A stretch of DNA of 64,000 nucleotides from an uncultured Gammaproteobacteria bacterium (GCA_964354025.1 CAYGXQ010000001.1:5963-69962); one strand, 5' to 3'. Numbered from the stretch's first letter, positions 2,041 through 40,901 are shown. The notes: a model not told the origin generated them from the letters alone. Translations and numbers: made by a program.

Positions 2041-2709
2041 ATGACTCTGTTAGACCTTTTATTTCCCCGCCGCTGTGTAAGTTGCGGCCGGATCGGAAAA
2101 TATATTTGTTCCCGCTGTTTCCCAAAGATTAAATTTATCCAACACCAGCTTTGTCCGGTTTGTGCCAAGCCGGCCGTTGACGGGATCACTCATCCGTATT
2201 GCCGGGGGAAATACCGGATGGACGGGATGTTTGCGGCCTGTCATTATCAGGGAGTGGTCAAACAGGCCATCCATCTTCTGAAATACCGACAGGTGAGCGA
2301 TCTGGTAGCAGAATTATCCTTATTGTTAGTTACGAATTATCCAAAGACAATTCCGAAATTAGATTTGTTAATCCCGGTTCCTCTTCACTTTCGAAGGGAA
2401 AAGGAGAGGGGATTTAACCAAAGTTTCCTGCTGGCTAAATCATTGGGGAAAAGATTGGGAGTTCCGGTTAACAATCATTTATTGAAAAGAATCAGATACA
2501 CCAAACCGCAGGCGGATCTGAAGCGGGAAAAACGGTTGGATAACATCAAAAATGTTTTTATCTGCAAAGAAAACGGAATACTTCGCGGCAAAACAATCGG
2601 TTTAGTCGACGACGTAGCCACCACCTTCGCCACCATCAACGAATGCTGTCGAGTTTTGAAACAGTCAGGAGTAAAAGCGGTTTGGGGCATCGTCCTGGCA
2701 CACGGTTAA
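2041..2709 (+). CDS. ComF-family (ComFC-like) phosphoribosyltransferase-domain protein
   Basis: N-terminal CxxC...CxxC zinc finger and C-terminal PRTase motif (GLVDDVATTFATI). The start is placed at the internal ATG at 2041. Confidence 0.7.
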   Translation: MTLLDLLFPRRCVSCGRIGKYICSRCFPKIKFIQHQLCPVCAKPAVDGITHPYCRGKYRMDGMFAACHYQGVVKQAIHLLKYRQVSDLVAELSLLLVTNYPKTIPKLDLLIPVPLHFRREKERGFNQSFLLAKSLGKRLGVPVNNHLLKRIRYTKPQADLKREKRLDNIKNVFICKENGILRGKTIGLVDDVATTFATINECCRVLKQSGVKAVWGIVLAHG

Positions 2710-3125
2710 TCCAGCCCGATTCTTCTAAGTTGATGTAATTTGTAGATTTTATCGAAGGAAAAAATATCGCTAAAGCCGTATTTCTGCATTACGGCGATAT
2801 TCGCGCAATCGACGACAGAGGTTTTATTTTTTATTTGCTTTCTAAAAAGGCTTAGAGTTTCTTTTTCCAATTCACCGGAAATGGTGTACATCTCCAAATT
2901 AGAATCTTTGACAGAATCTAAAAATTCAATTGCCGTTTGTTGATCTATACGATAACTCAAAAGATTGGCGACTTCATAGACAACAAGATTGATGACGGCA
3001 AATGTTATCTTTTCCCGGACCAATTTCTTATTAATAAATCGTGCCTTTTTATGATTTGCATCTTGAGGATTGATTAACGCATAGAAAGCGTCCGAATCGA
3101 CCAAAACTTTCTTGAGATCTTCCAT
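2706..3125 (-). CDS. vapC: PIN-domain toxin (VapC-like)
   Basis: 139 aa. Acidic residues (LVDSDAF, VVDCANIA, FSFD) are typical of PIN nucleases. It overlaps the upstream small gene by 1 nt. Confidence 0.7.
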   Translation of the reverse strand: MEDLKKVLVDSDAFYALINPQDANHKKARFINKKLVREKITFAVINLVVYEVANLLSYRIDQQTAIEFLDSVKDSNLEMYTISGELEKETLSLFRKQIKNKTSVVDCANIAVMQKYGFSDIFSFDKIYKLHQLRRIGLD

Positions 3126-3394
3126 TACCGGCCTCCTAAAACCGCTTCGGCCAAATATTTATCGTGATTTTTAGAAAGATCTTTCGGTAAACCTTTAAGG
3201 TTCCACTTAGCCAATTTATCCATCAGTTTCCAGGATTGATCTTTCCGGCTTTTTTCTTTAATAATTTTTTTAGCGCCCTTTCTGATCAGTTCTGAAAGAG
3301 TAAGATGTTCGGAACGGGCGAGAAATAGAAGATTTTGGTGCAGCTCTTCCGGAAGATAAATTTGTGTTCTAACCATATTATATACATTATACAT
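3125..3394 (-). CDS. Putative ribbon-helix-helix antitoxin (VapB-like)
   Basis: 89 aa, small, directly upstream of and overlapping the PIN gene. N-terminal TQIYLPEELHQNL resembles an RHH beta-strand. Confidence 0.5.
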   Translation of the reverse strand: MYNVYNMVRTQIYLPEELHQNLLFLARSEHLTLSELIRKGAKKIIKEKSRKDQSWKLMDKLAKWNLKGLPKDLSKNHDKYLAEAVLGGR

Positions 3395-3467
3395 TATACA
3401 TTATATCTGTCAAATAGACAGGATAGTGAATACACGTGAGATTTGATATAATTATCCAGGTTTATTT

Positions 3468-3553
3468 GGAGGCGTCCGATAGTGGTCAATTCGGGCGGTT
3501 TGCTAAACCGCTGAGCTGAAAGGCTCACGTGGGTTCAAATCCCACCGCCTCCG
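3468..3553 (+). tRNA. tRNA-Ser (anticodon GCU)
   Basis: Cloverleaf folded by hand. Acceptor GGAGGCG/CGCCUCC, long variable arm, T-loop GUUCAAAUC, anticodon loop UUGCUAA. CCA is not encoded. Confidence 0.85.
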
Positions 3554-3571
3554 CAAATTCCTGAAGTCTAT

Positions 3572-5002
3572 TTATAGTAAAAGAAAATGAGAGAGTGGAA
3601 TATTAACTGCTGTTTTACTTTCGTTTATTGATAAAGGTGATTTTGATACAACTAATCCGTATTTAGATTTTACACTCTTAGCAGTGTTATTTATTTGGGT
3701 AAATCCTTTTTTTCCGTATCCTACTTCTAATATAATATTTTGTTCATATAAACGGATAATAAAATCAGCTCCACCCGCTGCACTATCATAGGTAAGTGAG
3801 GCGTTTTTATTAACCAGACACCTTGTAAGATAAAGCCCTACCGTATCCTCCAACAACTTTCCCATATACATGTCTTGTCCGATGATATTTCCTACAAAGT
3901 TATAGTACATTGACCTAAAAGCCGGAGAAGCAAAAAGATATTTCGACGGCTTTCTCACTTGAGTTGCATGAGCTCCGTAAGGAAAGACTCTAAGCACTGT
4001 TTCTGTTTTCTCCAGCACATTTAATACCTGGGTAAGAGTTAATCTATCTATATCTAAATCGGGAGCTAAATTAGTAATGCTTAAAATATCGGTGGCGGCA
4101 ACCGTATATAAAATTTCGGGAATCTTTGAGATAATTTCATTTCTAAACTGCCCAAGTTGGGCAATATCCATACTTACCACTCTGTCTAATATCTTTTTTA
4201 TTTGGTCATAAACCAATCCCTCATTTTTCAACTTTACGGCAAACGGTAATGTTCCATATTTCATATATCTGTCTACCTCCAATCTCTCAATACCCATCCA
4301 GTACTGTTTTACTTCATTCTCCAGTATTTTTATTTGGTTAAATACTTCCTCAGATGTATTTGATTCGAAGACAGCCTTCCTTAATTTACCGGATAGTCCT
4401 TTTATTTCAAACTTGTTATCTTTAATTTTGATATATTCAGTAAAACTCATCGGATATAGCTTTTCAAAAATCACGCGTCTTGCTACATCAGGATTAGTTT
4501 GAAGCGTAACAGCAGAAGAGCCTGTTGCGAAAATGAAGACTTTTTTTGACCTGTCAAATATAGTTTTAAGGGTAATTGCCCATTTATTGTCATACTGCAC
4601 CTCATCAAGGAAAAGTACGACCGGTTTATCCAATCTTTCAAAGACGCTTCCCAAAATTTCTTCATAAGCGGACAACACATCGGAAAGCGTGACGCCTATA
4701 ATTTGGGTTATTTGGTCTACTGATAGAAAAAGTTTATTTACCCCAGGTTGAATAGTTTCATAAAATAGTTGAGAAAGAAGAGTTGTTTTCCCTACACCCC
4801 GAAATCCGGATATAGCTAACCAGCGAATTTCCGTATTATCCTGCCGAAAATCATTGTAATATTTATTTAGCTTCACATAACAATTGCGCTTAGGATTTTT
4901 GTTATTTTGTTCATCATATACATAGGCTCTGGCCCTGAAGTTTGCTTGAGCTATTTGTTCCTGAAGATATTTGAGAATAAGGTCTTTCTTCTCAGTAGTC
5001 AT
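3572..5002 (-). CDS. AAA-superfamily ATPase with DUF4143 (COG1373-like), paralog 1
   Basis: 476 aa. Walker A GFRGVGKTTL and Walker B LFLDEVQY. Paralogous to the genes at 13284 and 61119. Confidence 0.75.
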   Translation of the reverse strand: MTTEKKDLILKYLQEQIAQANFRARAYVYDEQNNKNPKRNCYVKLNKYYNDFRQDNTEIRWLAISGFRGVGKTTLLSQLFYETIQPGVNKLFLSVDQITQIIGVTLSDVLSAYEEILGSVFERLDKPVVLFLDEVQYDNKWAITLKTIFDRSKKVFIFATGSSAVTLQTNPDVARRVIFEKLYPMSFTEYIKIKDNKFEIKGLSGKLRKAVFESNTSEEVFNQIKILENEVKQYWMGIERLEVDRYMKYGTLPFAVKLKNEGLVYDQIKKILDRVVSMDIAQLGQFRNEIISKIPEILYTVAATDILSITNLAPDLDIDRLTLTQVLNVLEKTETVLRVFPYGAHATQVRKPSKYLFASPAFRSMYYNFVGNIIGQDMYMGKLLEDTVGLYLTRCLVNKNASLTYDSAAGGADFIIRLYEQNIILEVGYGKKGFTQINNTAKSVKSKYGLVVSKSPLSINESKTAVNIPLSHFLLL

Positions 5003-5408
5003 ATTACTAGTATATTACGCTAGACTAGAATAGTCAACTACTAGTGTATCCTACTATACTAGAGTACTGAAATGTGTCATTTAGCCTTGTATTTAAGGGA
5101 TTTACTAGTTTCCCCTTTTTCTTAAACTGTTTTACTTCATCCATTCATCCAGCCACATGCCGTTGTGATGGTCTTTAGCCCTGGTTTGCGCTTTGAGTAA
5201 CTCTTCATAAAGCATTGGTTTTCGCATTTTCCATTAATCAGTATTATATTTATAGTCTTCATGAGTTTATTTTATGATTTATATTAATGATAAAAAAGAG
5301 GTATATAAAGAGGAGAAAGAAAACCAAGTGTTGATACATTATATTAATTTTAGTTATTAAGAAGAAATAATAATTTTCATTTACGGCTTAGTCATGTAAA
5401 ATACAATT

Positions 5409-6260
5409 ATGAAGAGAGTTAACCCGCAACAACAAATAATTAATTATTACCACTCTGTTGAATCAAGACTCGGGTATGGATTCCTTTTAAGAGGGATTAA
5501 ACACTTTGGATATTATCCTCAAGATAAAAAACATATTTCCTTATGGAAAGCACAAATTCTTATGATTGATAAACTTGCTGAGACTATTAAATTGCCCAAG
5601 CATTCTTATCTTCTTGACGCGGGTTGCGGAGAAGGTTACACCGCTATTTACCTAGCAAAGCACTATCACTATCGTGTCTCAGGGGTAGATCTTTTGGATT
5701 TCAATATTACGAGCGCAGAGAAGAAGGCACAAAAAGAAAACGTGAAAGAAAAAGTAAATTTCCATATCATGAACTATGAACATCTAACCTATTCCGACAA
5801 TACATTTGATGGTGTTTATACTCTCGAGACTCTTGTTCATGCACAAAATTATATAAAAGCGCTAAGAGAATTTCATCGAGTATTAAAACCGCATGGAAAA
5901 ATTGTCCTCTTCGAATACACTATAGCACCACAAAAACTATTAACAAAGCAACAAAAAGAAATGGCGGTGCTCGTAAATAAAATGTCAGGAATGCATAGTT
6001 TCCCTCATTTTATTCATGGAAGTTTTCCCAACATCATGAAAGAGGCAGGTTTCACTACTGTATCTGTTACGGATATTACACAGGAAGTGTTGCCAGGGCT
6101 GAAATTTTTCTATTATCTAGCTTTCCTCGTTTATCCAATTATTAAGCTGTTGAAACTGCAAAAGATTTTTATAAATGCAACATGTGCTGTAGAGGCATAC
6201 AAAAATGTAAAGGATGATATTTTTCGCTATGTCATAGTAGAAGCAGTGAAAACACCGTGA
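5409..6260 (+). CDS. Class I SAM-dependent methyltransferase
   Basis: Motif I LDAGCGEGY and motif post-I VSGVDL. The gene body is AT-rich. Confidence 0.7.
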   Translation: MKRVNPQQQIINYYHSVESRLGYGFLLRGIKHFGYYPQDKKHISLWKAQILMIDKLAETIKLPKHSYLLDAGCGEGYTAIYLAKHYHYRVSGVDLLDFNITSAEKKAQKENVKEKVNFHIMNYEHLTYSDNTFDGVYTLETLVHAQNYIKALREFHRVLKPHGKIVLFEYTIAPQKLLTKQQKEMAVLVNKMSGMHSFPHFIHGSFPNIMKEAGFTTVSVTDITQEVLPGLKFFYYLAFLVYPIIKLLKLQKIFINATCAVEAYKNVKDDIFRYVIVEAVKTP

Positions 6261-6332: not shown

Positions 6333-7205
6333 ATGGCAGTCAACTCTTTGGTGAAAGAAAGGATCTGGAAGCTGAAGGAATCATACGATACACTGCGTTC
6401 GGGCAAAGACTCGCTTCTTTCGCTGATTGATGAAGCTGAACTGCCGGAAAATGTCTACAATTCCAATGCCATCGAAAACTCCACATTAACGCTTAAAGAA
6501 ACGGAACAGATTCTTATGGATTTGGAAGTGTCCAGGAAAGTATCGGTCCGCGAAGTTTTTGAAGCTAAAAACTTGGGTCGGGTGATCACCTACAAAAAAA
6601 ACATCTTACACCAGCAGGAATTGTCTATCGAGCTGATTCTTTTTCTTCATAAAATGCTTCTAAGCGGTATAAATGATGATATTGCCGGAAGATTTCGCCA
6701 AGACAATGAATATGTCCGGATCGGTACATTTATTGCCATCCCTCCTGAATATGTGGAACAGCGAATGAAGGAGATATTGATAGAATATTCCAGTAATTTT
6801 TCCCTGTATTTTTTGGAGAAAATTGCCAAATTCCATTTGGATTTTGAGACGATCCATCCGTTTAATGACGGAAACGGCCGTCTGGGACGTGTTTTAATAA
6901 ATTACCACCTGTTGTGTCTTGGTTTCCCCCGGATTATTATCCGCCAAAAAGACAGGAAAATATATTATAAAGCGTTTGAAATATACAGAAATGATAAGAA
7001 AACAAAACTGATGGAAAACGTAATATCGCTTGCGATTTTGGAATCCCTACACAAAAGAATTGCCTATTTAAAAGGGATGACGATTATTCTACTGTCGGAA
7101 TATGCCGGTAAACACAAACTGGGTTCTCCGGCGGTTTTCAATGCCGCCAAAAGACAAACCATTCCCGCTTTCAGGGAAAAAGGAATCTGGAAAATCGGTA
7201 TTTGA
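6333..7205 (+). CDS. fic: Fic/Doc family protein (AMPylase-like)
   Basis: Canonical Fic motif HPFNDGNGRLGR. Confidence 0.8.
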   Translation: MAVNSLVKERIWKLKESYDTLRSGKDSLLSLIDEAELPENVYNSNAIENSTLTLKETEQILMDLEVSRKVSVREVFEAKNLGRVITYKKNILHQQELSIELILFLHKMLLSGINDDIAGRFRQDNEYVRIGTFIAIPPEYVEQRMKEILIEYSSNFSLYFLEKIAKFHLDFETIHPFNDGNGRLGRVLINYHLLCLGFPRIIIRQKDRKIYYKAFEIYRNDKKTKLMENVISLAILESLHKRIAYLKGMTIILLSEYAGKHKLGSPAVFNAAKRQTIPAFREKGIWKIGI

Positions 7206-7332
7206 ATTCCTTATGTATCAAGTTAATACAAACCCGGCGTGAATGTAGAACTTCAGATTAAATATTAACGAACGAAGATATTATTTCTTTTATTGATTAT
7301 GCTATGAATCTACATTATTATTTAATACAAGT

Positions 7333-7719
7333 ATGAAAAATAAAATAAAAAGCAAGAAGTTCTTCTTCTTTATTATTTTTCTTTTAGCTAATTTTCCAGG
7401 AATAGGTTATTTGCCGATCGTTAATCATTTTGACTGTACAGGATTGCCAAATAATTGTACAGGAACAGAACTTGTTATCAAACTAAATCCAATCCTTTGG
7501 TTTCCAGAGATATTATCTAAATGGACCAGTGTTTTTCCTGGTAACCTATTTGGAATTAATGTACAGGAATTTGGTCACTTTACTCGTCCGTTTATGCTAT
7601 TTCCCATACTTTCATTTATAAATTATGGAGAAATTATTACAATAATGTTATTGACATTATATTGGATATTACTTTCAAATATTTTCCAAATTATTCTCAA
7701 AAAATTTAAAAGATCATAG
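7333..7719 (+). CDS. Hypothetical small membrane protein, AT-rich
   Basis: ORF only, with hydrophobic segments; no homology recognised. Confidence 0.25.
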   Translation: MKNKIKSKKFFFFIIFLLANFPGIGYLPIVNHFDCTGLPNNCTGTELVIKLNPILWFPEILSKWTSVFPGNLFGINVQEFGHFTRPFMLFPILSFINYGEIITIMLLTLYWILLSNIFQIILKKFKRS

Positions 7720-7807
7720 ATGGCCAATCGTCAATAAAAAGGTTTTAACACCGTAAATGGTCCCCCGCGAAATATACCAAGTTAGAACTTTTGGTATAAT
7801 AAATAAA

Positions 7808-8539
7808 ATGATGAAAGATAAATTTGCCGTTGTTACTGGAGCTTCGACTGGTATTGGCAGAGCCATTGCCGTAGCCTTTGCTAAAAAAGGAGTAAAGGTT
7901 GCCCTTGTGGCCCGGACAAAAGAGAGGCTACAGATGACAAAAGATTTAGTGGAAAAAGCCGGCGGCCAGGCGGAAATTTTCCCAACAGATCTTAGTAAAC
8001 TCGATTCCATCAACGATTTGATTTCCCGGATCAAGAGCAAAACAAAGAAGATAGATATCCTGGTAAACGTGGCCGGTATCTGGCATGGGGAAAATGAGGT
8101 TTATGCCGGAAGAAATTTTGCGGATTTTCCGCAGCCGGTTATTCTTGATACTTTTTTTGTCGGGACAATCGCTCCGACAATTCTTGCCCATGCTTTTGTA
8201 CCTTTGATGGGAAAGGGAAGTAAGATCATCAATATCTCCGGCACCTTTTCAAGCGGGGCAAAAGGCTGGTTGCCTTATTATGTTTCCAAAAGAGCCATTG
8301 AGGATTTGACAATCGGTTTGGCCGAGGAATTGAAGGAAAAAGACATTCAGGTCAACGCCATTTCGCCTTCCGATACCGCTACCGATGCATATAAAAAATA
8401 TTTTCCGCAATATCTGAAAGAGGCGATTAATCCCGAGGAAATTGCCGCTTATGCCGTTTACCTTTGCGAAAATAACCTGACCGGAAAAGTTTTCGTTTTG
8501 AAGAAAGACAAAGAACCCTCTGAAGGCTTTCACCGATAA
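7808..8539 (+). CDS. Short-chain dehydrogenase/reductase (SDR) family oxidoreductase
   Basis: TGASTGIGRAIA Rossmann motif, NVAG, and the YxxxK catalytic pair (YYVSK). Confidence 0.85.
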   Translation: MMKDKFAVVTGASTGIGRAIAVAFAKKGVKVALVARTKERLQMTKDLVEKAGGQAEIFPTDLSKLDSINDLISRIKSKTKKIDILVNVAGIWHGENEVYAGRNFADFPQPVILDTFFVGTIAPTILAHAFVPLMGKGSKIINISGTFSSGAKGWLPYYVSKRAIEDLTIGLAEELKEKDIQVNAISPSDTATDAYKKYFPQYLKEAINPEEIAAYAVYLCENNLTGKVFVLKKDKEPSEGFHR

Positions 8540-8569
8540 TAATCGCTAAGATTCTGGTAAAATAGACGC

Positions 8570-10306
8570 ATGAAGATGAAAGTGGTCTACTTCCTGGGAA
8601 TAATCCTTATTTTAACCGGTATCTTTTTCCGCTTTTATAATCTCCGTTACAACAGCGAATTTGAGTGGGACCAGGAAAATTCGGTAGCTTATCCGGCCAG
8701 AGGCATTATTGTTGACCATAAATTACCGCTCATCGGCGCTAAAACAAGCGTCGGCAACCTCTACGTTGGCCCGCTTTACTCCTATCTGGCGGCCGTCTTT
8801 TTTTTCTCTTTCAAGATGGACCCGATTGCCGGAGTCTATTTGGCGGCGACGGTGTCAGTGATAACAATTCTTATTAGTTACTTGTTGATGAGAAAACTGG
8901 GAAAAGAGGCCGCTTTCTTTTTCACTCTTCTTTGGTCGACCTCGTCTTTGATGATTACCTATGACCGGATACCGTGGAATGTAAATCTATTGCCGCCGGC
9001 TGCCATTTTGACTTTTTTCGGGATGTATTTAACCAATTGGATTTTGCTCGGTTTAGGCATTTTTCTCGGGATTAACAGCCATTACAGTTTTATCTTTTTT
9101 ATTCTTGCCTGCGTCATATTTTTTGTTATCAACAGGAAATTAATTACCAGGTCGATCTGTTGGACAATCCTTCTATCACTTCTTGGGATACTGCCGCTTC
9201 TGATTTTTCATTTCCGTCACGGTAATTCTCTGGGAAATAACTTACAGCAATTTACCGTCTCTTCAATCAACGGATTTTCCCGTTTGGGCAGTTCATTTAT
9301 TTTTGCTTTTACCAATACCCTTGAATCCCAAATGGCGGTGGTTTTTGGCCGCGAATCCGGCTGGATAAAGGAAATTTTTGCCGCCATTTTTATTTATTTC
9401 CTGATTTTTTTCCGGCATCTCAAGCCCATAAGGAATTTCCTCAAAGTATTTTCCGTCATTTTTTTGATGTATCTGTTGGGCTTTACCGTTTATCACGGTC
9501 ACGCGCCCTCGTACTATTTTATCGGGCTTTATCCTATAGCTACCATTGGATTGGCTTTGGTTTTGGCGGAAATTAGCCGCAGGCTTGCCGCTTTATCAGT
9601 CCTGATCCTTTTTATCGCCTTTATGAATCTTATGCAGGCGTATCCGCTGGTTAAAAAGATAAGTCCGACGTCTTTGGGTACCAAACAGGATTTATTGAAA
9701 ACCATCAAGAATCTGGCCGGAGAAGAGAAAACCAGCCTTATCTATGATATGGATCTGGGGAACAGTTTCGGCTACAGTTTCCTGGCTGATTATTACCGGC
9801 TTAATCTAGTTTCCGGGGAAGAAACGAAAAACAAGTATTGGATCAGCCGGCCGGCCGGCCGTTTTCCCGGCCGGCCGGATTATACTTTTGGCGACTTTGC
9901 CTTAGGTTTGCCTCAAACAGTAGAGCGGATCTATGCTTCTAAAGAAGTGCTATTGTTTGGGGAATTATTCCGCATAAGAATTCCCAAAAACTGGACCGTA
10001 GTTCAATGTCAGGGAATTGATTTCGATAAGTATTTTTTGACCGCGGACAACAGTGTTTCATGCGATATTTTTCCTAAAGAAAGCAAAGGCATCACCATTA
10101 CCAATCTTCCGGATTGCAACCGGTCAAAATTTGCGGCAAGTCAATTAATAAAATCGCCGGGCGGGGAGGAATTATATCAAGTAAATAATCAGGAAATCGC
10201 CGGGATTTTTGAGGAAAACCGGTGTGTTTTCTTTACTGATCTGGATAAGAGTATCAACGGAGAGATTTCATCCGATTTAGCGACAATTATATTGTCGCTA
10301 AAATAA
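8570..10306 (+). CDS. Polytopic membrane protein with a C-terminal soluble domain; possible GT-C-fold glycosyltransferase (PMT/ArnT-like)
   Basis: About 12 predicted TM helices followed by a ~200-aa hydrophilic domain. The assignment rests on architecture alone. Confidence 0.35.
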   Translation: MKMKVVYFLGIILILTGIFFRFYNLRYNSEFEWDQENSVAYPARGIIVDHKLPLIGAKTSVGNLYVGPLYSYLAAVFFFSFKMDPIAGVYLAATVSVITILISYLLMRKLGKEAAFFFTLLWSTSSLMITYDRIPWNVNLLPPAAILTFFGMYLTNWILLGLGIFLGINSHYSFIFFILACVIFFVINRKLITRSICWTILLSLLGILPLLIFHFRHGNSLGNNLQQFTVSSINGFSRLGSSFIFAFTNTLESQMAVVFGRESGWIKEIFAAIFIYFLIFFRHLKPIRNFLKVFSVIFLMYLLGFTVYHGHAPSYYFIGLYPIATIGLALVLAEISRRLAALSVLILFIAFMNLMQAYPLVKKISPTSLGTKQDLLKTIKNLAGEEKTSLIYDMDLGNSFGYSFLADYYRLNLVSGEETKNKYWISRPAGRFPGRPDYTFGDFALGLPQTVERIYASKEVLLFGELFRIRIPKNWTVVQCQGIDFDKYFLTADNSVSCDIFPKESKGITITNLPDCNRSKFAASQLIKSPGGEELYQVNNQEIAGIFEENRCVFFTDLDKSINGEISSDLATIILSLK

Positions 10307-10542
10307 TCCTATAGTAGTTATTGACTATTAAGCGGGTTTGTGGTAAACTTCTTTTACAGATTTATTAAACCGATAAATCTGCTTATATCAGATTTAGTTT
10401 TAAAGAGTCAAGATAAAGATACCCGTTTGTAAAATACTTCGTATCTTTTCCGCTTTTTGAGAGACCACTTCTTATTTAGGCAGATTCATCTGTTTTATAC
10501 TTCGACTAAGCTCAGTATTATTAATATTAAAAAGGAGAAAAA

Positions 10543-10863
10543 ATGGCTAAAAATTTATTTGTCGGGAGCATCCCCTTTACCGTTGATGAAAATGCTTTGA
10601 ACCAGTTGTTCACCACCATCGGTCAGGTTCAATCAGTCAGCATCATTAAGGATAAATATACCGGATCCAGCCGCGGATTTGCTTTCGTAGAAATGGTTAA
10701 TGAGGAAGACGCAAAAAAAGCCATAGAACAATTGAATGGACATTTACTTGAAGGCAGAAACATCGTCGTCAAAGAGGCTTTGCCGAAACCTACCTATACC
10801 AACGGTCGAAGCGACGGAAGAAGCCGCGGCGGCTTTGGTAATCGTGGCAGCCGAAGGTATTGA
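10543..10863 (+). CDS. RRM-type RNA-binding protein with a Gly/Arg-rich tail
   Basis: RNP2 LFVGSI, RNP1 RGFAFVEM, and a C-terminal RGG-like tail. Confidence 0.85.
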   Translation: MAKNLFVGSIPFTVDENALNQLFTTIGQVQSVSIIKDKYTGSSRGFAFVEMVNEEDAKKAIEQLNGHLLEGRNIVVKEALPKPTYTNGRSDGRSRGGFGNRGSRRY

Positions 10864-10888
10864 ATTTAATTTAATTTAACAAATTCTT

Positions 10889-11143
10889 GTGAAAACACCT
10901 ACTAATCCGTGCATTCGCTGCGGTAAGGAACGTATTTTTTCCAAGAAATGGAAAGAATATATCGGTAAGTCATTGGTGACTTATACCGACAATATCTGTC
11001 CGGATCCCGAGTGCCAGAAAATTGTGGAAACCGGTCTCAAAGATAAAAAAGACCGCCTTGAGACAATCCAGGCCAATTCCTTAAGACGCAGGACGGAAAA
11101 CCGGAGAAATAGAAAATCCTCAAGTAAAAGACAGACCCGTTGA
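10889..11143 (+). CDS. Small zinc-ribbon protein with a highly basic C-terminus
   Basis: CxxC ... CxxC followed by an Arg/Lys-rich tail; GTG start. Confidence 0.35.
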   Translation: MKTPTNPCIRCGKERIFSKKWKEYIGKSLVTYTDNICPDPECQKIVETGLKDKKDRLETIQANSLRRRTENRRNRKSSSKRQTR

Positions 11144-11187
11144 AGAAAGGCAGGTTGTTGTTCTATAATGATCTAAGATAGAAAAAT

Positions 11188-11721
11188 ATGAACACGGCTG
11201 CCCAAAACAATCCGCTATCCAATCAACCAAACCTTAACGAAATACTGATTTCCTGGACCAGCCCGGCTTACCCTTTCAAGAAAAGAAACCGGATTTTTTA
11301 CCAGACGATTGCCGCCCTGACTCTACTTCTGGTGGTTATTGTTTTTTTCCTGCATGAGTTTTTACTAATCGGTGTGATTTTGTCTATCGCCTTTGTCGTT
11401 TATGTTATTTCCACTATCCCGCCGCTTGAGACGGAGCACCGGATTACTCCTTTGGGGTTTGAAAATGCGGGGCGGATGTTCCGCTGGATAGAACTTTATT
11501 CTTTCTGGTTTGAAAGCAAATGGGAAGAAAGAGTACTGGTAATCCAGACGAGATTGCCTTTTCCGGCGCAACTGCGTGCGGTTGTGCGCGGAGTTGAGGA
11601 GAAAAAGCTGAAGGAGATTATCGGCAAATACCTTCTTTTTCAAGAAAAACCGCCGAAAAGCGTGGTTGATAATTTTTCCGACTGGCTGTCCAAAAAAATC
11701 CCCATGGAGTCGGAAAGCTAA
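11188..11721 (+). CDS. Hypothetical membrane protein
   Basis: Two TM helices near the N-terminus; no motif. Confidence 0.4.
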   Translation: MNTAAQNNPLSNQPNLNEILISWTSPAYPFKKRNRIFYQTIAALTLLLVVIVFFLHEFLLIGVILSIAFVVYVISTIPPLETEHRITPLGFENAGRMFRWIELYSFWFESKWEERVLVIQTRLPFPAQLRAVVRGVEEKKLKEIIGKYLLFQEKPPKSVVDNFSDWLSKKIPMESES

Positions 11722-11775
11722 GGTTACTCCTCAAAGTGGCGTATTTACCTTCCAGATAATATAATAGGTAGTAAT

Positions 11776-11847
11776 GTTCCCGTAGCTCAACGGATAGAGC
11801 GCGGCCCTGCGGAGGCTGAAATACCAGTTCGATTCTGGTCGGGAACG
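11776..11847 (+). tRNA. tRNA-Arg (anticodon reads GCG)
   Basis: 72-nt cloverleaf. Acceptor GUUCCCG/CGGGAAC, T-loop UUCGAUU, anticodon loop CUGCGGA. Confidence 0.7.
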
Positions 11848-11853
11848 CAAAAA

Positions 11854-11939
11854 GGAGAGTTGGCTGAGCGGTTCAAAGCGACGGTCTCGAAAACCGTTCT
11901 CCCGTAAGGGAGGCGCAGGTTCAAATCCTGCACTCTCCG
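11854..11939 (+). tRNA. tRNA-Ser (anticodon CGA)
   Basis: 86 nt, long variable arm, anticodon loop CUCGAAA, T-loop GUUCAAAUC. It lies 6 nt after the tRNA-Arg. Confidence 0.8.
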
Positions 11940-12050
11940 CAAAATCTGAAAATTTCAATTAATATAGATTGTTATATAGCCTCAAAACTCATTTTAGGTT
12001 CTAACACTATGACGGGCTGTCTCAAAATTCCTAATTCTTAAAATATCCGT

Positions 12051-13193
12051 TTGAGATGTATAATTCACTATATGGCAATTGAATTAATTGGAATGACTGG
12101 TGGGCATCCAGAACAACTAAATCCTACTTTCGTTAATCCTGCAGTAATGGCGGTAGTAAATAATGCTAATTTGGAAAGAATTATTGCAAAAGGTTTAAAT
12201 GTATCTGACAGTGGACAAATTCCAATTACGGATGTAAGGGATCTTATTCAAATGAGTCAAGAGATAAGGACCGCCAGTAGAAAAGAGGTAGGAGGATTTA
12301 AAGAAATAGTCGTATATCTAGGTAAAAAAAGTCATGATATCAGTCGAGGAGTTGGTGCTGTTTCATTCGTAGGGGTAGAAAGAAGTGTTCCAATCCCTTT
12401 TGCTGGTCAAACAAGCGCAATTCTTGATGATCTTAGTCCTGAATCTGATATTTTAATAGTTCATTTACACCCAGAATCCCCAGAAGCAAGCAATGAAGAT
12501 TTAAGCGCATTACAAACAATCGCTAGAGCTTTATCAGTAAAATCAGATAGAAATATAAGAGCTTCCTTATTAATTATTGGGGATAAAGATAATGAGGAGA
12601 TACTCTACACTTTTGATTCCAGAGGCAAATATATGACTGTTATTTTGGAGAATTTACTTGCCAGAGAACGGTTATCCCCGCCTCTTTTAGATAAACTTTT
12701 TCTATTAATATACAGAGGTGATCGTTTTGATAAAGCAGCAGATGCTTATCAGTCAACATGGTATCGGGATAATAAATTATATCCGCCGGAAATTCCAGGA
12801 ATAGGTCTTCTTCTACCCGGTTATTTAAATTCTACACCCCAAACTGCGTCTATTCCAGATCAGGCAATTATTGCTGAACCAAAGTCGAATTTACTAGTTT
12901 TACGTAATACTGGAGATACAGGAAAGTGGCCTGTTATATATATTGAAAAAGATGGAATTGTTCAACCTCTTGAGCGTCAATATAATGGAAAACAATATTG
13001 TTATCTATTAAATGGGATACCCTATTTTGCAGCGCCAAATAGTTTTATTCTTACTTCTGGAGTGAAAATTGGTATTCCTCAGGGAGGAATAAAGGTTGCA
13101 GATTATAAAATTAATCTAACTGGAGGAAGAAATATTCATGAAATTGATATACTTGCTGTGCCAAAAGACTCACTTCCGAGGGAAGCAAAATAG
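12051..13193 (+). CDS. Hypothetical protein in an AT-rich island; weak JAB/MPN-like HxH...S..D motif
   Basis: HLHPESPEASNED resembles the JAMM motif HxHx7Sx2D but is one residue short. Otherwise no homology is recognisable. Confidence 0.35.
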   Translation: MRCIIHYMAIELIGMTGGHPEQLNPTFVNPAVMAVVNNANLERIIAKGLNVSDSGQIPITDVRDLIQMSQEIRTASRKEVGGFKEIVVYLGKKSHDISRGVGAVSFVGVERSVPIPFAGQTSAILDDLSPESDILIVHLHPESPEASNEDLSALQTIARALSVKSDRNIRASLLIIGDKDNEEILYTFDSRGKYMTVILENLLARERLSPPLLDKLFLLIYRGDRFDKAADAYQSTWYRDNKLYPPEIPGIGLLLPGYLNSTPQTASIPDQAIIAEPKSNLLVLRNTGDTGKWPVIYIEKDGIVQPLERQYNGKQYCYLLNGIPYFAAPNSFILTSGVKIGIPQGGIKVADYKINLTGGRNIHEIDILAVPKDSLPREAK

Positions 13194-13283
13194 ATTTTAA
13201 TACTGTAAATGGTTCTCCGTCTGGTGCGGGACAAATCCCTCTCCCACCGCATAAAGAGGAAGATTGCCATCTGACGGAAAAAT

Positions 13284-14567
13284 TTAAGATAAATAATTAT
13301 TATCAATTACCCACTTATAAACAGGGATTACTTTTATAATCTGTTTCTTATCCGGTATTTCCTGCTCGGTATTATAAGTCAATATCAAACCGCTGGTTAC
13401 TTTTAATTCTTCCATTGCCTGCTTTAGACTGTCGATCTCTCTTTTCTTCGTCATTTCATCATGTAAATCCCAACATACCTGAATCAGCGCTTTTTTCCTG
13501 TTTGGCAGTTTAATCAAAAAATCAATTTCTTTATTATTCCCGGTTTTATAAAAATAGGTTTCACAACCTTTTCTTAATAACTCCAGAAAAACGCACTGTT
13601 CCATAATTCTTCCCTTATCTTCTGAAAATCTGAAGGAGACGGTATTTGCCAGTCCGCAATCAACGGAATATATCTTTTTGCTAGCTTTTTGTTGAAACTT
13701 GAGAGAATAGGAAAATTGAGACAGTTCAAACGTTAAAAATGCTTCATTGAAATAATTCAGATAATCAGAAATAGTTTCAAAAGAAAGGGAAAAAGTTTTT
13801 TTCAGTGATTCTATAGAAACAGTTTTTGCGGAGTTGGTAATAAGAAATATTCCCATTTTTTCCAGAGTATCTTTTTGCCGCACATCATATCTCATAACAA
13901 TATCTTTCTGGATGATATCAAAATAATATTGTTTTAATAGAGAAAGATTTCCTGTTTTGACTATTTCAGGAAATCCGCCGATTAACAGATATTCATCAAA
14001 ATTTTTAAGTAAAGTTTTTTCCTTGAGTATCAAATCCTTTTTACTTTCTACTTTTATTTCCTTAAAAGATAGAAATTCGCTGAAGGATAAAGGCAGTACC
14101 GAATATGAGATATGCCTGCCGGTAAGCAGAGTGGATAATTCCCGGCTTAACAATTTTGAAGAGGAACCGGTAAGAAAAATTTTATAATTCCCGCCGTCTC
14201 TTAATTTTCTCACCGCGCTTTCCCAATGATTCACGGCGTGGATTTCATCAAAGAAAAGATATTTCAGATTTTGACTGAAATATTCTTTCTGGACTGAGAT
14301 CAATTCTTCTATAACTTCAGGTGAATTATGGGAAACAAAATAAGGATCTTCAAAATTGATAAACAGAAAATCATCAGTGAGTTTTAATTTTTTGATCAGC
14401 AGTTTCAGAATTGATGACTTACCGCTTCTTCTGGGACCAATAATGTCGATCGCTTCCTTGCTTTTATAATCGATATGATCCACAACAGGACGATAATGTA
14501 GGTCTTCCTCATAAGCAGTCTTTTTCCAGAAGTCTATAATTTTGACCAATTGTTGGGTATCATACAT
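13284..14567 (-). CDS. AAA-superfamily ATPase with DUF4143, paralog 2
   Basis: Walker A GPRRSGKSSIL and Walker B LFFDEIH. The architecture matches the genes at 3572 and 61119. Confidence 0.75.
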   Translation of the reverse strand: MYDTQQLVKIIDFWKKTAYEEDLHYRPVVDHIDYKSKEAIDIIGPRRSGKSSILKLLIKKLKLTDDFLFINFEDPYFVSHNSPEVIEELISVQKEYFSQNLKYLFFDEIHAVNHWESAVRKLRDGGNYKIFLTGSSSKLLSRELSTLLTGRHISYSVLPLSFSEFLSFKEIKVESKKDLILKEKTLLKNFDEYLLIGGFPEIVKTGNLSLLKQYYFDIIQKDIVMRYDVRQKDTLEKMGIFLITNSAKTVSIESLKKTFSLSFETISDYLNYFNEAFLTFELSQFSYSLKFQQKASKKIYSVDCGLANTVSFRFSEDKGRIMEQCVFLELLRKGCETYFYKTGNNKEIDFLIKLPNRKKALIQVCWDLHDEMTKKREIDSLKQAMEELKVTSGLILTYNTEQEIPDKKQIIKVIPVYKWVIDNNYLS

Positions 14568-14626
14568 ACTAGAGTATAGTTTACTATAATATTAGATTAT
14601 AGTCAAGTATAGTTGATGATATCTTG

Positions 14627-15922
14627 TTACTTCATCCGCTTCTGGAGGTCTGATTCGACTGTCTGGCGGTCTTCTCCGAATTTCTTTTGGGATTGGATTT
14701 TAAACTCCTCAACTTTCGCTTTGTCAGGTTTATTTTCCGGTAAATTTTGTTCAAAATTGACCGGTTCTTCTTTAATGGCGACATTTCCCTCCTGAAGCGT
14801 TTTGAGATAAGCCTGGTATTTTTTAAGGAGACAAAGTTTGTCGACCGTGATATTTTGGGAATGAAATTCGGGTGCAACTACCTGAGCCTCTTCCGTTGTT
14901 TGTCTGAAAGAGACAAGCGTACCGACTTTTGATAAAGCTCTTTTAAGCGGAAGAGACGCTTCAGAGATTTTATTGGTCGTCAGAGTAAGGTTAATGCCGT
15001 ATCTTCGGTTTTCCATTAATAAATCGCACATTAAGGTTGTTGGCCAGGCTGAAGCTTCATCTATATAAAGATTAACGATTGGATTGCCGGCGGAATGTTC
15101 CAAATAATTGATGAGCTTAAAAAGAAGGATAGTAGTAATGATTTTATTGACATCGCTATTTTTCTTGAGGTTTTTGAAATCAAAGAGAATGATTTGATAA
15201 TTTGAAAAAAGTGACGGAAAAGAAAAGGTTGATTTTGGTTGTCCCAGAATATAGCGCATGGATTTATCGGTCACAAACAGACCGAGTTTTGAAACGATAT
15301 AATCCAATACTTCTGATTTATGAAAGTCAGAGGTTTGGGCGACCTGCTTATTCCAGTAATTCAGGACAATAGGATCCTGCACTTTCGGTAAAATATTTTT
15401 TAAGTACGAAGCATCCGTCAAACAGCGGAGAAGTTCGACAAAAGAAGCATTTTCGTCGTACAGAATTGTTAAAATGGCATTTCTGACCGCGTGTTCGAAA
15501 CGCGGTCCGATGACGCCGGTATGTTTCGGGTCATACAAATCATACATGAGGCTGATCAGGATATTGGCGATTTGTTGTCTGTTTTTCTCGTCTTTTTCTT
15601 CAAACAGATTAAGGCCAACAGGAAAGTCATTATTGCCCAGGTCCAGATAAGCGATTTTTGGCAACGTTTCGTTATCAGCACTGGTAATAATTTCTTCAGC
15701 CAGATCGCCATACTGATCGAATACGACAATGGGACAGGAGGAACGGATATCCTGATTGATTAAATTAAAAAAATATCTGGAAACACCGACTCCGGGAATA
15801 CCGGTGACAAGGATATTTCTTGACCGGTCGTCCGGGGACAAAAAAAGATTTTTAAAAATTTCCAGACCGTTAGTTGGATTATTCATATATTTATATACTA
15901 ACAAATTGGTTTTATTATTCAA
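14627..15922 (-). CDS. P-loop NTPase of the HerA/FtsK/VirD4-like (DUF87-type) class, with an atypical Walker A
   Basis: Walker B LYIDEASAW. Walker A reads GIPGVGVS, with Val in place of the canonical Lys. No TM segments. Confidence 0.5.
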   Translation of the reverse strand: MNNKTNLLVYKYMNNPTNGLEIFKNLFLSPDDRSRNILVTGIPGVGVSRYFFNLINQDIRSSCPIVVFDQYGDLAEEIITSADNETLPKIAYLDLGNNDFPVGLNLFEEKDEKNRQQIANILISLMYDLYDPKHTGVIGPRFEHAVRNAILTILYDENASFVELLRCLTDASYLKNILPKVQDPIVLNYWNKQVAQTSDFHKSEVLDYIVSKLGLFVTDKSMRYILGQPKSTFSFPSLFSNYQIILFDFKNLKKNSDVNKIITTILLFKLINYLEHSAGNPIVNLYIDEASAWPTTLMCDLLMENRRYGINLTLTTNKISEASLPLKRALSKVGTLVSFRQTTEEAQVVAPEFHSQNITVDKLCLLKKYQAYLKTLQEGNVAIKEEPVNFEQNLPENKPDKAKVEEFKIQSQKKFGEDRQTVESDLQKRMK

Positions 15923-15990
15923 CGGTCAGTCTTAAAACACACATTTGACAACGGATATAATGTAGTATATAGTATATACATAGAGAAATT

Positions 15991-16281
15991 ATGGGAAGTG
16001 AGAATATTACGAATTTTCAATGGGACAAGGGAAATATCGGGAAAAACCTTAAACATAAAGTGATGGATGAAGAGACAGAACAGGTATTTTTTGATAAGAA
16101 TAAAGTAATTTCAGAAGATATCGCTCACTCGCAAAAAGAAAAAAGATATATCATTATCGGTAAAACGAAAGAAGGAAGGTTACTTTATACAGTATATACA
16201 TTTAGAGGAAACAAGATAAGAGTCGTTTCCTCAAGAGATATTAATAAAAAGGAGGTTCATTTTTATGAAAAAGCCGCTTAA
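15991..16281 (+). CDS. brnT: BrnT-family ribonuclease toxin
   Basis: N-terminal FQWDKGNIGKNLKHKV matches the BrnT signature (FxWDxxKxxxNxxKHGV). It overlaps the downstream antitoxin gene. Confidence 0.65.
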   Translation: MGSENITNFQWDKGNIGKNLKHKVMDEETEQVFFDKNKVISEDIAHSQKEKRYIIIGKTKEGRLLYTVYTFRGNKIRVVSSRDINKKEVHFYEKAA

Positions 16282-16531
16282 ATTGCCAAAATTTAAGAAT
16301 GAGGAGGAAGAAAGAAAATATTGGTGGAATCTGGACCTTTCCGGATATTTTGAACCGTCTGATTTCAAAAAAGGCGTGACATTTCCGAATCTTAAGCCAA
16401 CTACCACTCCCATTTCTATCCGTATTCCGAAGTACCTTTTAAATCGGGTCAAAGAAAAAGCAAATGAACTGGCGATGCCTTATCAGAGCCTGATTAAGCA
16501 GTATATTCAAAAAGGAGTGATGGCAAGATAA
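16265..16531 (+). CDS. brnA: BrnA-family antitoxin
   Basis: 88 aa with a C-terminal RHH-like segment (ISIRIPKYLLNRVKEKANE). It overlaps the brnT stop. Confidence 0.6.
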   Translation: MKKPLKLPKFKNEEEERKYWWNLDLSGYFEPSDFKKGVTFPNLKPTTTPISIRIPKYLLNRVKEKANELAMPYQSLIKQYIQKGVMAR

Positions 16532-16550
16532 AATAAACAAGAGAATCAAT

Positions 16551-17030
16551 ATGATCAAAGAATTTTCCGCCGGAGGAATTGTTTATAAGCGTAAAGCGGA
16601 AAGCGTAAAGCGGAAAGCCAGTGATGTTGTTTGGTTAGTATGTCAACATTCGCAGCATAAGGGCTGGGTTTTTCCGAAAGGCTTTATCGGCGACCACCCT
16701 TCGACAAGCTCAGGGCAAGCAGAATCTGAAGAAGAAGCGGCTTTGCGGGAAGTGGAAGAGGAGACTGGCGTCAAAGGCAAAATCTTAGCCAAACTGCCCA
16801 AACCCGCCGGATATTTTTACGTTTGGAAAGGCGAGAAACGTTTTAAAACCGTCTATTATTTCCTGATGGAATATGCAGGAGGAGACATAAAAAACCATGA
16901 TTTCGAAATGATGAAAGTCGAATGGTGGCCGAGGGAGAAAGTGGAAAAAAGTTTGACGTATAAGTCCGATAAGACCGCCTTTGCCGAAGCGTTAAAATTA
17001 TTTAATGATGCGGAGTACAATAAATCCTGA
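16551..17030 (+). CDS. NUDIX hydrolase
   Basis: Nudix box (E)x7REVEEETGV. Confidence 0.8.
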   Translation: MIKEFSAGGIVYKRKAESVKRKASDVVWLVCQHSQHKGWVFPKGFIGDHPSTSSGQAESEEEAALREVEEETGVKGKILAKLPKPAGYFYVWKGEKRFKTVYYFLMEYAGGDIKNHDFEMMKVEWWPREKVEKSLTYKSDKTAFAEALKLFNDAEYNKS

Positions 17031-17088
17031 TTAAATCGGGATTTAAACACTCCAGCAAAGTTTAATCTTCGAAGAAGATTATTACTTT

Positions 17089-17277
17089 GCGCCTGTAGCT
17101 TAACTGGACCTGCCCGCAAATGCCTCGCATAGCGATGTCAGGCGGGTAGAGCATCCCGATTTGCTCCCGTAGCTTAATGGATAGAGTAGTGGTTTCCGGA
17201 ACCGCTGATGCCAGTCCGATTCTGGCCGGGAGCGCAACATCGGGGCGGTTGGAGGTTCGAGTCCTCTCAGGCGCGCA
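17089..17277 (+). other. Split tRNA-like locus. A 5' tRNA half (17089-17158) and a matching 3' tRNA half (17236-17277) flank the intact tRNA-Arg(CCG).
   Basis: The 5' half has acceptor GCGCCUG and a D-arm carrying a ~38-nt insert. The 3' half has T-arm GGAGGUUCGAGUCCUCU and CAGGCGC+G, which pairs perfectly with the upstream 5' acceptor. UCCCG (17154-17158) can pair with CGGGG (17241-17245) as an anticodon stem. Confidence 0.35.
17163..17234 (+). tRNA. tRNA-Arg (anticodon CCG), nested inside the split tRNA-like locus
   Basis: 72-nt cloverleaf. Acceptor GCUCCCG/CGGGAGC, anticodon loop UUCCGGA. The T-loop is the atypical UCCGAUU. Confidence 0.6.
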
Positions 17278-17373
17278 GAAGTGAATGATATAAAAATAAT
17301 ATTCTTTAATCAAAAAGCAGAAAAATTGGGAAAAGAGCTGCTTAATAAGTTATAATACAGTTTAATACATACT

Positions 17374-17459
17374 GGAGAGGTGTGATAATTGGTAGTCGGC
17401 GCGCTTGGAAAGCGCGTGTCTCGGAAACGAGATTACGGGTTCGAGCCCCGTCCTCTCCG
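17374..17459 (+). tRNA. tRNA-Ser (anticodon GGA)
   Basis: 86 nt, long variable arm (UCUCG-GAAA-CGAGA), anticodon loop UUGGAAA, T-loop GUUCGAGCC. Confidence 0.85.
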
Positions 17460-17598
17460 CAAGAAAAAGGTACCGTAAGAAATGGACTTCTATTTCGGCT
17501 TAAATTCCTTATGTGTCAAGCTAATACAAACCTGGTGTGGATATAATGGTGTGGATATAATAATTGATATCGGTAGCTGTTAGCTGTACCATATAAAT

Positions 17599-18141: not shown

Positions 18142-18200
18142 TTTTCCAATTACTAGCCTTTTGAATATAGATTCTGGTTATACCCCAAAACAGATAATAG

Positions 18201-40887: not shown

Positions 40888-40901
40888 GTATATAAGTATA
40901 T

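Follow-up and report, generated by a model that had tools for sequence, protein, structure and literature searches.

Distantly related AAA_14-DUF4143 ATPase genes of a Microgenomates-like genome, two of them in small accessory islands at tRNA-Ser genes

Introduction

Three genes for AAA ATPases with a C-terminal DUF4143 region, here named A1, A2 and A3, lie within a 64,000-nucleotide stretch of DNA (GCA_964354025.1 CAYGXQ010000001.1:5963-69962; hereafter the window) that is labelled as an uncultured Gammaproteobacteria bacterium and is, in this analysis, a Microgenomates-like genome (Patescibacteria, or candidate phyla radiation, CPR). A first reading made from the sequence alone (the sequence-only reading) took the three genes for paralogs in AT-rich islands, two of them starting at tRNA-Ser genes, and proposed a recurrently mobilised cassette of the ATPase plus a Fic or methyltransferase gene, perhaps with a function in defence or addiction. 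Does the window hold one cassette that moved repeatedly, or separate genes sharing a type of genomic location? We consider it likely that A1, A2 and A3 are three anciently diverged stand-alone genes, two of which reside in accessory hot spots at tRNA-Ser genes that were filled piecemeal.

The AAA_14-DUF4143 family is already catalogued, as COG1373 ('predicted AAA+ ATPase') and as PDC-S01 in PADLOC. DUF4143 is listed as a PD-(D/E)XK family (PMC3424549), and PDC-S01, an ATPase fused to a PD-(D/E)XK domain, ranks fourth by frequency among the 'defence' types of prokaryotes, experimental validation being pending for most phage defence candidates (PDCs; PMC12988326). PDCs are untested candidates nominated from their embedding in BREX, DISARM or restriction-modification (RM) loci (bioRxiv 10.1101/2024.01.29.577857). 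Published surveys report SoFic and single-gene PDCs to be enriched in Patescibacteria.

Results

Domain architecture and relatedness of the three ATPases

A1 (3572-5002, minus strand, 476 aa), A2 (13284-14567, minus strand, 427 aa) and A3 (61119-62423, plus strand, 434 aa) all contain AAA_14 and DUF4143, as the sequence-only reading had stated. Pfam scores for A1, A2 and A3 were 81, 119.2 and 118.6 bits for AAA_14 (gathering cutoff 27) and 30.3, 92 and 74.6 bits for DUF4143 (gathering cutoff 28.1), the latter match being marginal for A1. A Walker A motif of the form GxxxxGK[ST] was present in all three translations (A1 GFRGVGKTT, A2 GPRRSGKSS, A3 GFRRVGKTY), whereas the narrower GxxGxGK pattern ascribed to them earlier fits A1 only; a Walker B motif (hhhhDE) was read in each, in A1 as LFLDEVQ. 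Pairwise identity was 22% for A1 and A2, 24% for A1 and A3, and 34% for A2 and A3. With identities of no more than 22-34% among the ATPases and 23% between the Fic proteins described below, the genes are anciently diverged paralogs and not copies of a single cassette; they are paralogs in a distant sense, not close copies.

The PADLOC hidden Markov model (HMM) of PDC-S01 matched A2 with 359 bits and A3 with 328 bits (nearly full length), and A1 with 95 bits over positions 13-357 of 412 (E-values 6e-108, 1.5e-98 and 1e-27, respectively), membership being judged from these HMM bits and E-values and not by PADLOC's own cutoffs. The three proteins share the two-domain architecture of PDC-S01, and A1-family members resemble that group in being stand-alone genes that are often found beside RM genes. 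A1 differs in forming a divergent, CPR-specific clade with a score of only 95 bits, a DUF4143 match barely over threshold, about 45 extra N-terminal residues and a nuclease motif of the variant form E-x-G-x-G-x-K. A further difference from PDC-S01 is that no RM, BREX or DISARM system was found around or beside A1, A2 or A3.

The predicted structure of A1 (predicted local distance difference test score, pLDDT, 90.4) comprises an AAA+ module resembling ORC/Cdc6, DnaA, RuvB, RFC and STAND NTPases and a C-terminal domain with a PD-(D/E)XK nuclease fold, the latter a further likeness to PDC-S01. Both the predicted fold and the conserved acidic and Lys residues identify this domain as PD-(D/E)XK, with D413, E426 and K432 invariant in the alignment of homologs. 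In A2 and A3 the residues Q-V-C occupy the place of the canonical (D/E)xK. A search of the PDB with the A2 sequence returned nothing but weak P-loop matches to PilT. Immediately upstream of the A1 start, within a divergent intergenic region of 406 nt, lies a 22-nt imperfect inverted repeat (5007-5062), which is a possible operator.

Each ATPase is likely to be the product of a stand-alone gene, in which an AAA+ NTPase of the ORC/Cdc6/DnaA type would be joined through a helical linker to a PD-(D/E)XK nuclease domain at the C-terminus. The most likely mechanism would be that such a protein detects invading DNA and cleaves it under NTP control, broadly comparable to McrBC, in which an AAA+ motor works with the PD-(D/E)XK nuclease McrC. 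The likeness concerns only the likely mode of action and not family membership: A1-type proteins are single polypeptides, the AAA+ module of A1 is nearer to the ORC/Cdc6/DnaA/STAND group than to McrB, and no DNA-modification reader domain was identified in them.

Islands 1 and 2 at tRNA-Ser genes

A1 lies in island 1 (3555 to approximately 7735, ~4.2 kb, the right boundary being approximate), which begins at the 3' end of a resident tRNA-Ser(GCT) gene (3468-3554, plus strand; tRNA and tmRNA genes were called by ARAGORN and Rfam). The island contains A1, whose stop codon is 18 nt from the tRNA, a methyltransferase gene (5409-6260, plus strand), the Fic-domain gene fic1 (6333-7205, plus strand) and ORF128 (7333-7719, plus strand), an open reading frame (ORF) of 27.6% GC with no family match. 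On the 5' side of the same tRNA lies a toxin-antitoxin pair identified by Pfam and consisting of VapC (PIN domain, 2706-3125) and VapB (RHH, 3125-3394), both on the minus strand.

Island 1 was compared with L101, a contig of a close relative reached via its ComF protein (90% identical), on which the order is SmpB, tmRNA, ComF, 47 nt, tRNA-Ser(GCT), 95 nt and an SDR gene. The tRNA-Ser(GCT) of L101 (4817-4905) equals window 3466-3554 (100% over 89 nt, blastn); homology ends exactly at the tRNA 3' end and resumes in the SDR gene, where L101 5158-5333 corresponds to window 7817-7992. In place of island 1 this relative has 95 nt, and A1, the methyltransferase, Fic1 and ORF128 are absent there, as is VapBC (2706-3394). 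Since ComF, tRNA-Ser(GCT) and SDR are contiguous in L101, both island 1 and VapBC are lineage-specific.

The methyltransferase that the sequence-only reading had noticed beside A1 is real. Its Methyltransf_11/25 and UbiE/CMAS-like matches mark it as a class I S-adenosylmethionine (SAM) methyltransferase of the small-molecule type and not a DNA methyltransferase, and it did not recur in 100 related loci. A remnant of an SNase-like nuclease gene upstream of A1, suspected from the related locus L041, received no support from tblastn or Pfam.

A2 lies in island 2 (11941-16542, ~4.6 kb), which starts at the 3' end of tRNA-Ser(CGA) (11854-11940, plus strand), itself preceded by tRNA-Arg(GCG) (11776-11848, plus strand). 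The first ~110 nt after the tRNA precede the island genes, which are ORF380 (12051-13193, plus strand), A2, ORF431 (14627-15922, minus strand) and, at the distal end, a BrnT/BrnA toxin-antitoxin pair (BrnTA; 15991-16531, plus strand). The earlier statement that two ATPase copies start within ~120 nt of a tRNA-Ser holds for A1; A2 is 1,344 nt from tRNA-Ser(CGA), and there it is only the island that begins within that distance. ORF380 has no family match (35.6% GC; 18% GC at third codon positions, GC3); it carries a weak JAB/MPN-like HLHPESPEASNED motif with non-canonical spacing and is flanked by two features described below, the apparently replaced tRNA pair on one side and the remnant of an ancestral tRNA on the other. 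ORF431 has a degenerate P-loop lacking the Lys (GIPGVGVS), a YIDEA Walker B-like motif and a weak match to TraD/coupling proteins; it was not beside any A2 relative and had no homolog in the fetched loci except in the same strain. Neither ORF380 nor ORF431 is a conserved partner of A2, as no locus of an A2 relative contained them.

The relative available for island 2 was L002, a contig of a 'Candidatus Microgenomates' metagenome-assembled genome whose PMT_2 protein is 82% identical and which was the sole species-representative relative returned, limiting the synteny tests; two further contigs (L001 and L015) are near-identical strain contigs, and an exact-sequence look-up of SmpB for strain variants returned no record. 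On L002 tRNA-Ser(CGA) is directly followed by NUDIX, four tRNAs with NUDIX between them lying within ~1 kb, and window 11941-16542 has no counterpart (blastn). Insertion at a tRNA 3' end with variable presence was in this way found for island 1 against L101 and for island 2 against L002. Both islands are missing at the same tRNA-Ser genes in the closest relatives and deviate in composition, which supports the earlier view that they are accessory and not housekeeping DNA.

A third variable site follows tRNA-Ser(GGA) (17374-17460; slot 17374-18953 in all). Here the window has ORF180 (17599-18141) and a cytochrome-b5-like ORF (35-37% GC), in contrast to a GIY-YIG-like ORF (recognised by eye), a small ORF and a Fic1 ortholog in L002. 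All three tRNA-Ser 3' flanks in the region are variable, and the core DNA between them is collinear at 86-90% identity.

Genes of islands 1 and 2 have a GC content of 28-40%, compared with 42-48% in the flanking core genes. A1 has 35.2% GC (GC3 30.6%), the methyltransferase 35.4%, A2 32.9% and BrnT 31.3%. Around copy 1 the low-GC zone does not simply begin after the tRNA and spans its 5' side too, VapBC having 35-37% GC. Copy 3 is not compositionally deviant (A3 40.3% and Fic2 38.7%, compared with 41.7% for the window and a median gene of 41.9%), and the proposed AT-rich setting is thus confirmed only for the first two copies.

RNA genes around the islands

Pfam and NCBIfam detected no integrase, recombinase or transposase domain in the island ORFs, of which ORF380, ORF431 and ORF128 remained without assignment. 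Attachment (att)-like repeats of tRNA 3' ends, for which the sequence-only reading had proposed a search at the far side of the islands, were sought by comparing the last 18-45 nt of every tRNA and tmRNA with both strands of the window. The 3' ends of the current tRNA-Ser(GCT) and tRNA-Ser(CGA) had no second copy in the window at up to 3 mismatches in 22 nt, and no attL/attR direct repeat was found at the distal boundary of either island. A1, A2 and A3 were not bracketed by direct or inverted repeats beyond short AT-rich chance matches.

A 19-nt exact copy of the L002-type tRNA-Ser(CGA) 3' end is present at 13233-13251 (plus strand), inside island 2, 33 nt from the A2 stop and ~1.3 kb downstream of the current tRNA pair. 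This ancestral remnant accompanies a tRNA-Arg(GCG)/tRNA-Ser(CGA) pair (11776-11940) that is only ~73% identical to that of L002, with acceptor stems differing on both strands, and that is a divergent allele, apparently a replacement. At 17089-17278 an L002-type tRNA-Arg(CCG) is interrupted: its 5' 20 nt, a TAGAGCA segment and its 3' 34 nt are each 100% identical, a 38-nt hairpin sits in its D-loop, and its anticodon arm is swapped for a 7-bp stem (TCCCGAT/ATCGGGG) around a complete, different tRNA-Arg(CCG) (17163-17235). One tRNA-Arg is here nested inside another; with introns allowed, ARAGORN did not call the outer gene as an intron-containing tRNA. We infer that these scars were left when foreign DNA recombined with the genome at conserved tRNA sequence. 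A common foreign source is suggested by the likeness of the two 'new' tRNA-Arg genes of the window.

Several further observations concern repeats near these RNA genes. The tRNAs of L002 are each flanked by hairpin-rich repeats of ~80 nt (5241-5322, 5396-5483, 6005-6084, 6160-6259; e.g. GCGGAGTGCAATAAATCCCGAT...CACTCCAGC). The window keeps one copy upstream of the tRNA-Arg(CCG) remnant (17008-17103, 95%) and has none before tRNA-Arg(GCG), the replaced pair lacking the upstream hairpin repeat of L002. A 46-nt direct repeat (7202-7247 and 17500-17545, 85% identical), found in the contigs of this strain only, occurs right after the Fic1 stop and 40 nt after tRNA-Ser(GGA), the latter being the slot of the L002 Fic1 ortholog; both copies fit a 30-nt core pattern that has two degenerate positions, with no further mismatch, and no shuffled sequence fitted it. 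ORF128 and ORF180, which both follow this repeat, are unrelated on comparison.

The tmRNA gene (1557-1965) also differs from its counterpart in L101 (3691-4101): a 100-nt stretch aligns at 76%, the flanks at 87-90%, and the tag peptides are ANKSADEAEAILAFRANQSYQFAFAPSLSA in the window and ADKDSRTTAQILEDVKYLLEGGARNYAVATLHA in L101. It may be another replaced RNA gene.

Beyond the window, among the metagenome loci described below, a tRNA lay within 300 nt of an A1-family gene in 5 loci, compared with ~1.3 expected from the tRNA density in the same loci (Poisson p ~0.01, our estimate); two of the five are tRNA-Ser, and a third tRNA-Ser is 925 nt away.

Compared with known tRNA-linked islands and defence hot spots, the window shares variable, compositionally deviant DNA that extends from the 3' ends of tRNA genes, with toxin-antitoxin and defence-type genes in it. 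Islands 1 and 2 differ from them in lacking an integrase and an att duplication, in measuring 4-5 kb only, and in that nearby tRNA genes appear to be replaced by divergent alleles, with scars left.

Fic proteins and genomic neighbourhoods

Fic-domain genes (Pfam) occur near two of the three ATPases, as the sequence-only reading had noted: fic1 is 1.3 kb from A1, and fic2 (59592-60644, minus strand, of ordinary composition) 0.5 kb from A3. Fic1 (290 aa) has a canonical active site, HPFNDGNGRLGR, conforming to HxFx(D/E)GNGRxxR, and an SNAIEN inhibitory-helix motif. Fic2 (350 aa) has QPFTDGNKRTGR, which does not conform to this pattern and carries Gln for the catalytic His, and retains SSRIEG, a motif of the (S/T)xxxE(G/N) type; judged by these residues it is probably not a canonical AMPylase. 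Identity between the two proteins is 23%. Both match the PADLOC SoFic and PDC-S04 models, and Fic1 resembles SoFic in its canonical active-site motif. They differ from it in scoring 32.6 (Fic1) and 24 bits (Fic2) against an NCBIfam SoFic equivalog cutoff of 550, and Fic2 further in the Gln replacing the catalytic His.

Whether ATPase and Fic form a unit was evaluated in 79 metagenome loci of the A1 family with 113 distinct immediate neighbours. These neighbours matched 136 Pfam families and revealed no conserved partner of the A1 family. RM domains were the commonest (Eco57I 5, N6_Mtase 4, TaqI_C 4, MmeI_Mtase 4 and ResIII 3, partly in the same proteins), followed by AAA_14 (3) and Fic (2 of 113). 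Conserved adjacency and co-orientation of ATPase and Fic were not observed, as Fic made up 2 of the 113 neighbours and orientations varied. Six Fic-motif ORFs occurred in the flanks, five of them within 2 kb, where 32% of the flank bases fall (binomial p ~0.016, n = 6, by our own arithmetic). About 5 of 66 loci (~8%) had a Fic gene at a distance of up to 2 kb from the A1-family gene, and this low frequency fits shared small islands and not an obligate two-gene system. Fic and the ATPases share small accessory islands above chance without making up a unit, in agreement with the enrichment of SoFic and single-gene PDCs in Patescibacteria that surveys report.

Individual loci illustrate both situations. 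On L041 an A1 homolog (48% identical) is followed 437 nt on by a Fic1 homolog (49%), and on L095, the locus of an A2 relative, a Fic gene is 3.3 kb away. The Fic1 ortholog of L002 (80% aa identity) stands after tRNA-Ser(GGA), in a different slot and with no ATPase. L041 also contains a segmental duplication (6552-13368), in which flanks of 300, 259, 156 and 143 nt (90-95%) surround a 353-aa ORF and a Fic1-like Fic gene; its A1-like gene lies between these two genes, with a 46-nt direct repeat on either side of it (9813-9858 and 11437-11482; 91%).

These data speak against the cassette as first proposed. The identities between copies are low, the loci differ in the order and orientation of their genes, no Fic gene accompanies copy 2, and the methyltransferase recurred in 0 of 100 loci; nor does the co-occurrence of Fic in the 79 loci bear out an ATPase-Fic unit.

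Distribution of the A1 and A2 families

A1 has more than 1,400 relatives and, in a library of 50%-identity representatives, 279 clusters at E <= 1e-30. The best 120 relatives, at 53-92% identity and in most cases 476-479 aa in length, belong to Microgenomates, Parcubacteria and Saganbacteria; in their alignment with A1, 73 of the 476 A1 residues fall in columns at least 98% identical. A2 relatives are 57-77% identical across Patescibacteria. The core protein ComF, for comparison, is 90% identical in the sister species and then at most 60%. An A1 homolog on contig L072 is 69.5% identical compared with 31-62% for seven co-located core genes, and that of L041 48% compared with 29%. Together with the changing surroundings described next, this conservation pattern indicates either that the gene circulates horizontally within the CPR or that it is under exceptionally strong constraint.

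The surroundings of A1 relatives differ in every lineage examined (five long contigs, all different), examples being a position near EF-G, one between a type ISP restriction enzyme and PolA, and one beside a serine recombinase and Pif1. A2 relatives occur with toxin-antitoxin genes, with AbiEii and IS66, or with polysaccharide genes. The wider family was found on 291 plasmid records and on 21 'phage' records, most of them fragmentary. IMG/VR yielded no A1-family gene, and a single-protein scan with A2, which reaches close relatives only, was also empty. On this basis, with the same limit to close relatives for A2, a viral origin of A1 and A2 was rejected.

Other features of the window

Three toxin-antitoxin pairs (VapBC, BrnTA and ParE/Phd) occupy low-GC patches. 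ParE/Phd (23758-24284, minus strand) lies in a patch at 22.5-25 kb that also holds a ZIP transporter and an ORF resembling class II aminoacyl-tRNA synthetases; low-GC patches in the window generally house accessory modules and not ATPases alone. With the PDC-S01 and PDC-S04/SoFic matches, these pairs make the 'defence or addiction' flavour of the sequence-only reading a reasonable one. A tRNA-His gene is located at 58868-58941 (minus strand). Window 25362-26750 and 37402-45165 encode a RuBisCO large-subunit homolog, HMG-CoA reductase, an HMG-CoA synthase-like protein, a polyprenyl synthetase and an Fe-hydrogenase-like ORF. HMG-CoA reductase, the HMG-CoA synthase-like protein and polyprenyl synthetase are mevalonate-type isoprenoid genes. 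All of these metabolic genes are noteworthy for CPR and unrelated to the ATPase islands.

Discussion

The explanation that we favour as likely holds A1, A2 and A3 to be separate, old members of one family, two of which reached tRNA-Ser hot spots. Islands 1 and 2 would be small (4-5 kb), AT-rich, strain-variable segments starting exactly at tRNA-Ser 3' ends, filled piecemeal by horizontal transfer among CPR bacteria. Because neither an integrase nor an att duplication was found, the filling may have proceeded by uptake of DNA followed by recombination that used the homology of conserved tRNA genes as its anchor. Fic genes would stand beside the ATPases as equally common single-gene accessory modules of tiny islands and not as parts of one system.

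Several points weigh against this explanation. For a defence gene, conservation within the A1 clade is uncommonly high (53-92% identity, near-constant length), which could mean a conserved cellular role. Fic genes are closer to A1-family genes than would be expected by chance (p ~0.016, n = 6). An unrecognised recombinase is possible among ORF380 and ORF431, and the nuclease competence of A2 and A3 is uncertain because Q-V-C replaces (D/E)xK. PDC-S01 is a 'phage defence candidate' with a putative anti-phage role, and when systems were challenged in E. coli B with T7, T5 and T4, four gave protection, the single PDC-S01 representative not being one of them. Finally, each island was compared with a single relative contig, so that insertion and deletion are not formally separable; composition and the transfer signal favour insertion in the lineage of the window over deletion in the relative.

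An ATPase-Fic module, moved as a cassette, in which the ATPase-nuclease senses infection and Fic is the effector or a regulated toxin, would account for a Fic gene within 1.5 kb of two of the three window copies, for the clustering of five of six Fic-motif ORFs within 2 kb (32% of flank bases), and for the pairs seen on L041 (437 nt) and L095 (3.3 kb). We regard it as unlikely, since more than 90% of A1-family loci have no nearby Fic, which at 2 of 113 neighbours ranks below RM genes; orientation and spacing differ case by case, copy 2 has no Fic, and the L002 ortholog of Fic1 stands alone in another tRNA slot. Fic1 and Fic2, moreover, are 23% identical, Fic2 lacks the catalytic His, and PADLOC models both families as independent single-gene candidates. 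If the islands were instead classical integrase-mediated elements targeting tRNA-Ser 3' ends, with the ATPases as cargo, their exact start at tRNA 3' ends, variable presence and AT-richness would be expected, and the 19-nt remnant at 13233-13251, the excess of tRNAs within 300 nt of A1-family genes (5 loci, ~1.3 expected) and the large serine recombinase near one A1 relative (L008) would agree with it. That origin is improbable: the island ORFs contain no integrase, recombinase or transposase domain, the current tRNA-Ser(GCT) and tRNA-Ser(CGA) 3' ends are not repeated in the window, the remnant corresponds to the ancestral tRNA instead of the current one and is internal to island 2, away from its edge, the ATPase genes are not flanked by direct or inverted repeats, and VapBC is inserted on the 5' side of the same tRNA-Ser(GCT).

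The high conservation of A1 invites two other interpretations. The protein might be a housekeeping-like cellular factor of CPR bacteria, for instance in replication, repair or DNA uptake; its length of 476-479 aa and 53-92% identity across Microgenomates, Parcubacteria and Saganbacteria, the 73 of 476 residues in nearly invariant columns (at least 98% identical among A1 and 120 homologs), a conservation above that of neighbouring core genes, its frequent location among housekeeping genes (EF-G, PolA, S10) and its absence from IMG/VR viral contigs would all be in keeping with this. We hold such a role to be very improbable, given that the closest relative lacks A1 at the syntenic site and that A1 changes location in every lineage examined, has a GC content (35%) below that of the host and has RM genes as its commonest neighbours. 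Alternatively, the A1 clade might be a selfish ATP-dependent nuclease gene that circulates horizontally in CPR bacteria and, like a homing element, promotes its own integrase-free insertion beside conserved RNA genes. This idea, to which we give little credence, fits the near-constant length and the identity of at least 50% across CPR, above that of co-located core genes, as well as the lack of synteny and of viral-contig copies, the position exactly at a tRNA 3' end in the window, the tRNA proximity about four times above expectation and the 46-nt direct-repeat bracket on L041; the tRNA scars, including the nested tRNA-Arg, could then be by-products of the same recombination. The sequence-only reading would have been refuted by three copies conserved at syntenic positions in all relatives and of ordinary composition. 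This is not what was found, as islands 1 and 2 are missing in L101 and L002, respectively.

Taken as stand-alone genes in piecemeal-filled hot spots, the three ATPases provide a documented example of a known pattern, in which small-genome CPR bacteria keep single-gene accessory modules (PDC-S01, Fic, toxin-antitoxin) in tiny tRNA-side slots, and they correct a tempting 'cassette' reading. What stands out as more unusual is turnover at tRNA genes without an integrase, together with the nested tRNA scar: integrase-free change at all three tRNA-Ser 3' flanks hints at tRNA-anchored recombination in naturally competent CPR bacteria. One PDC-S01 clade, that of A1, is more conserved than core genes across CPR, and this clade is a good candidate for the first biochemical study of the abundant, uncharacterised PDC-S01 family.

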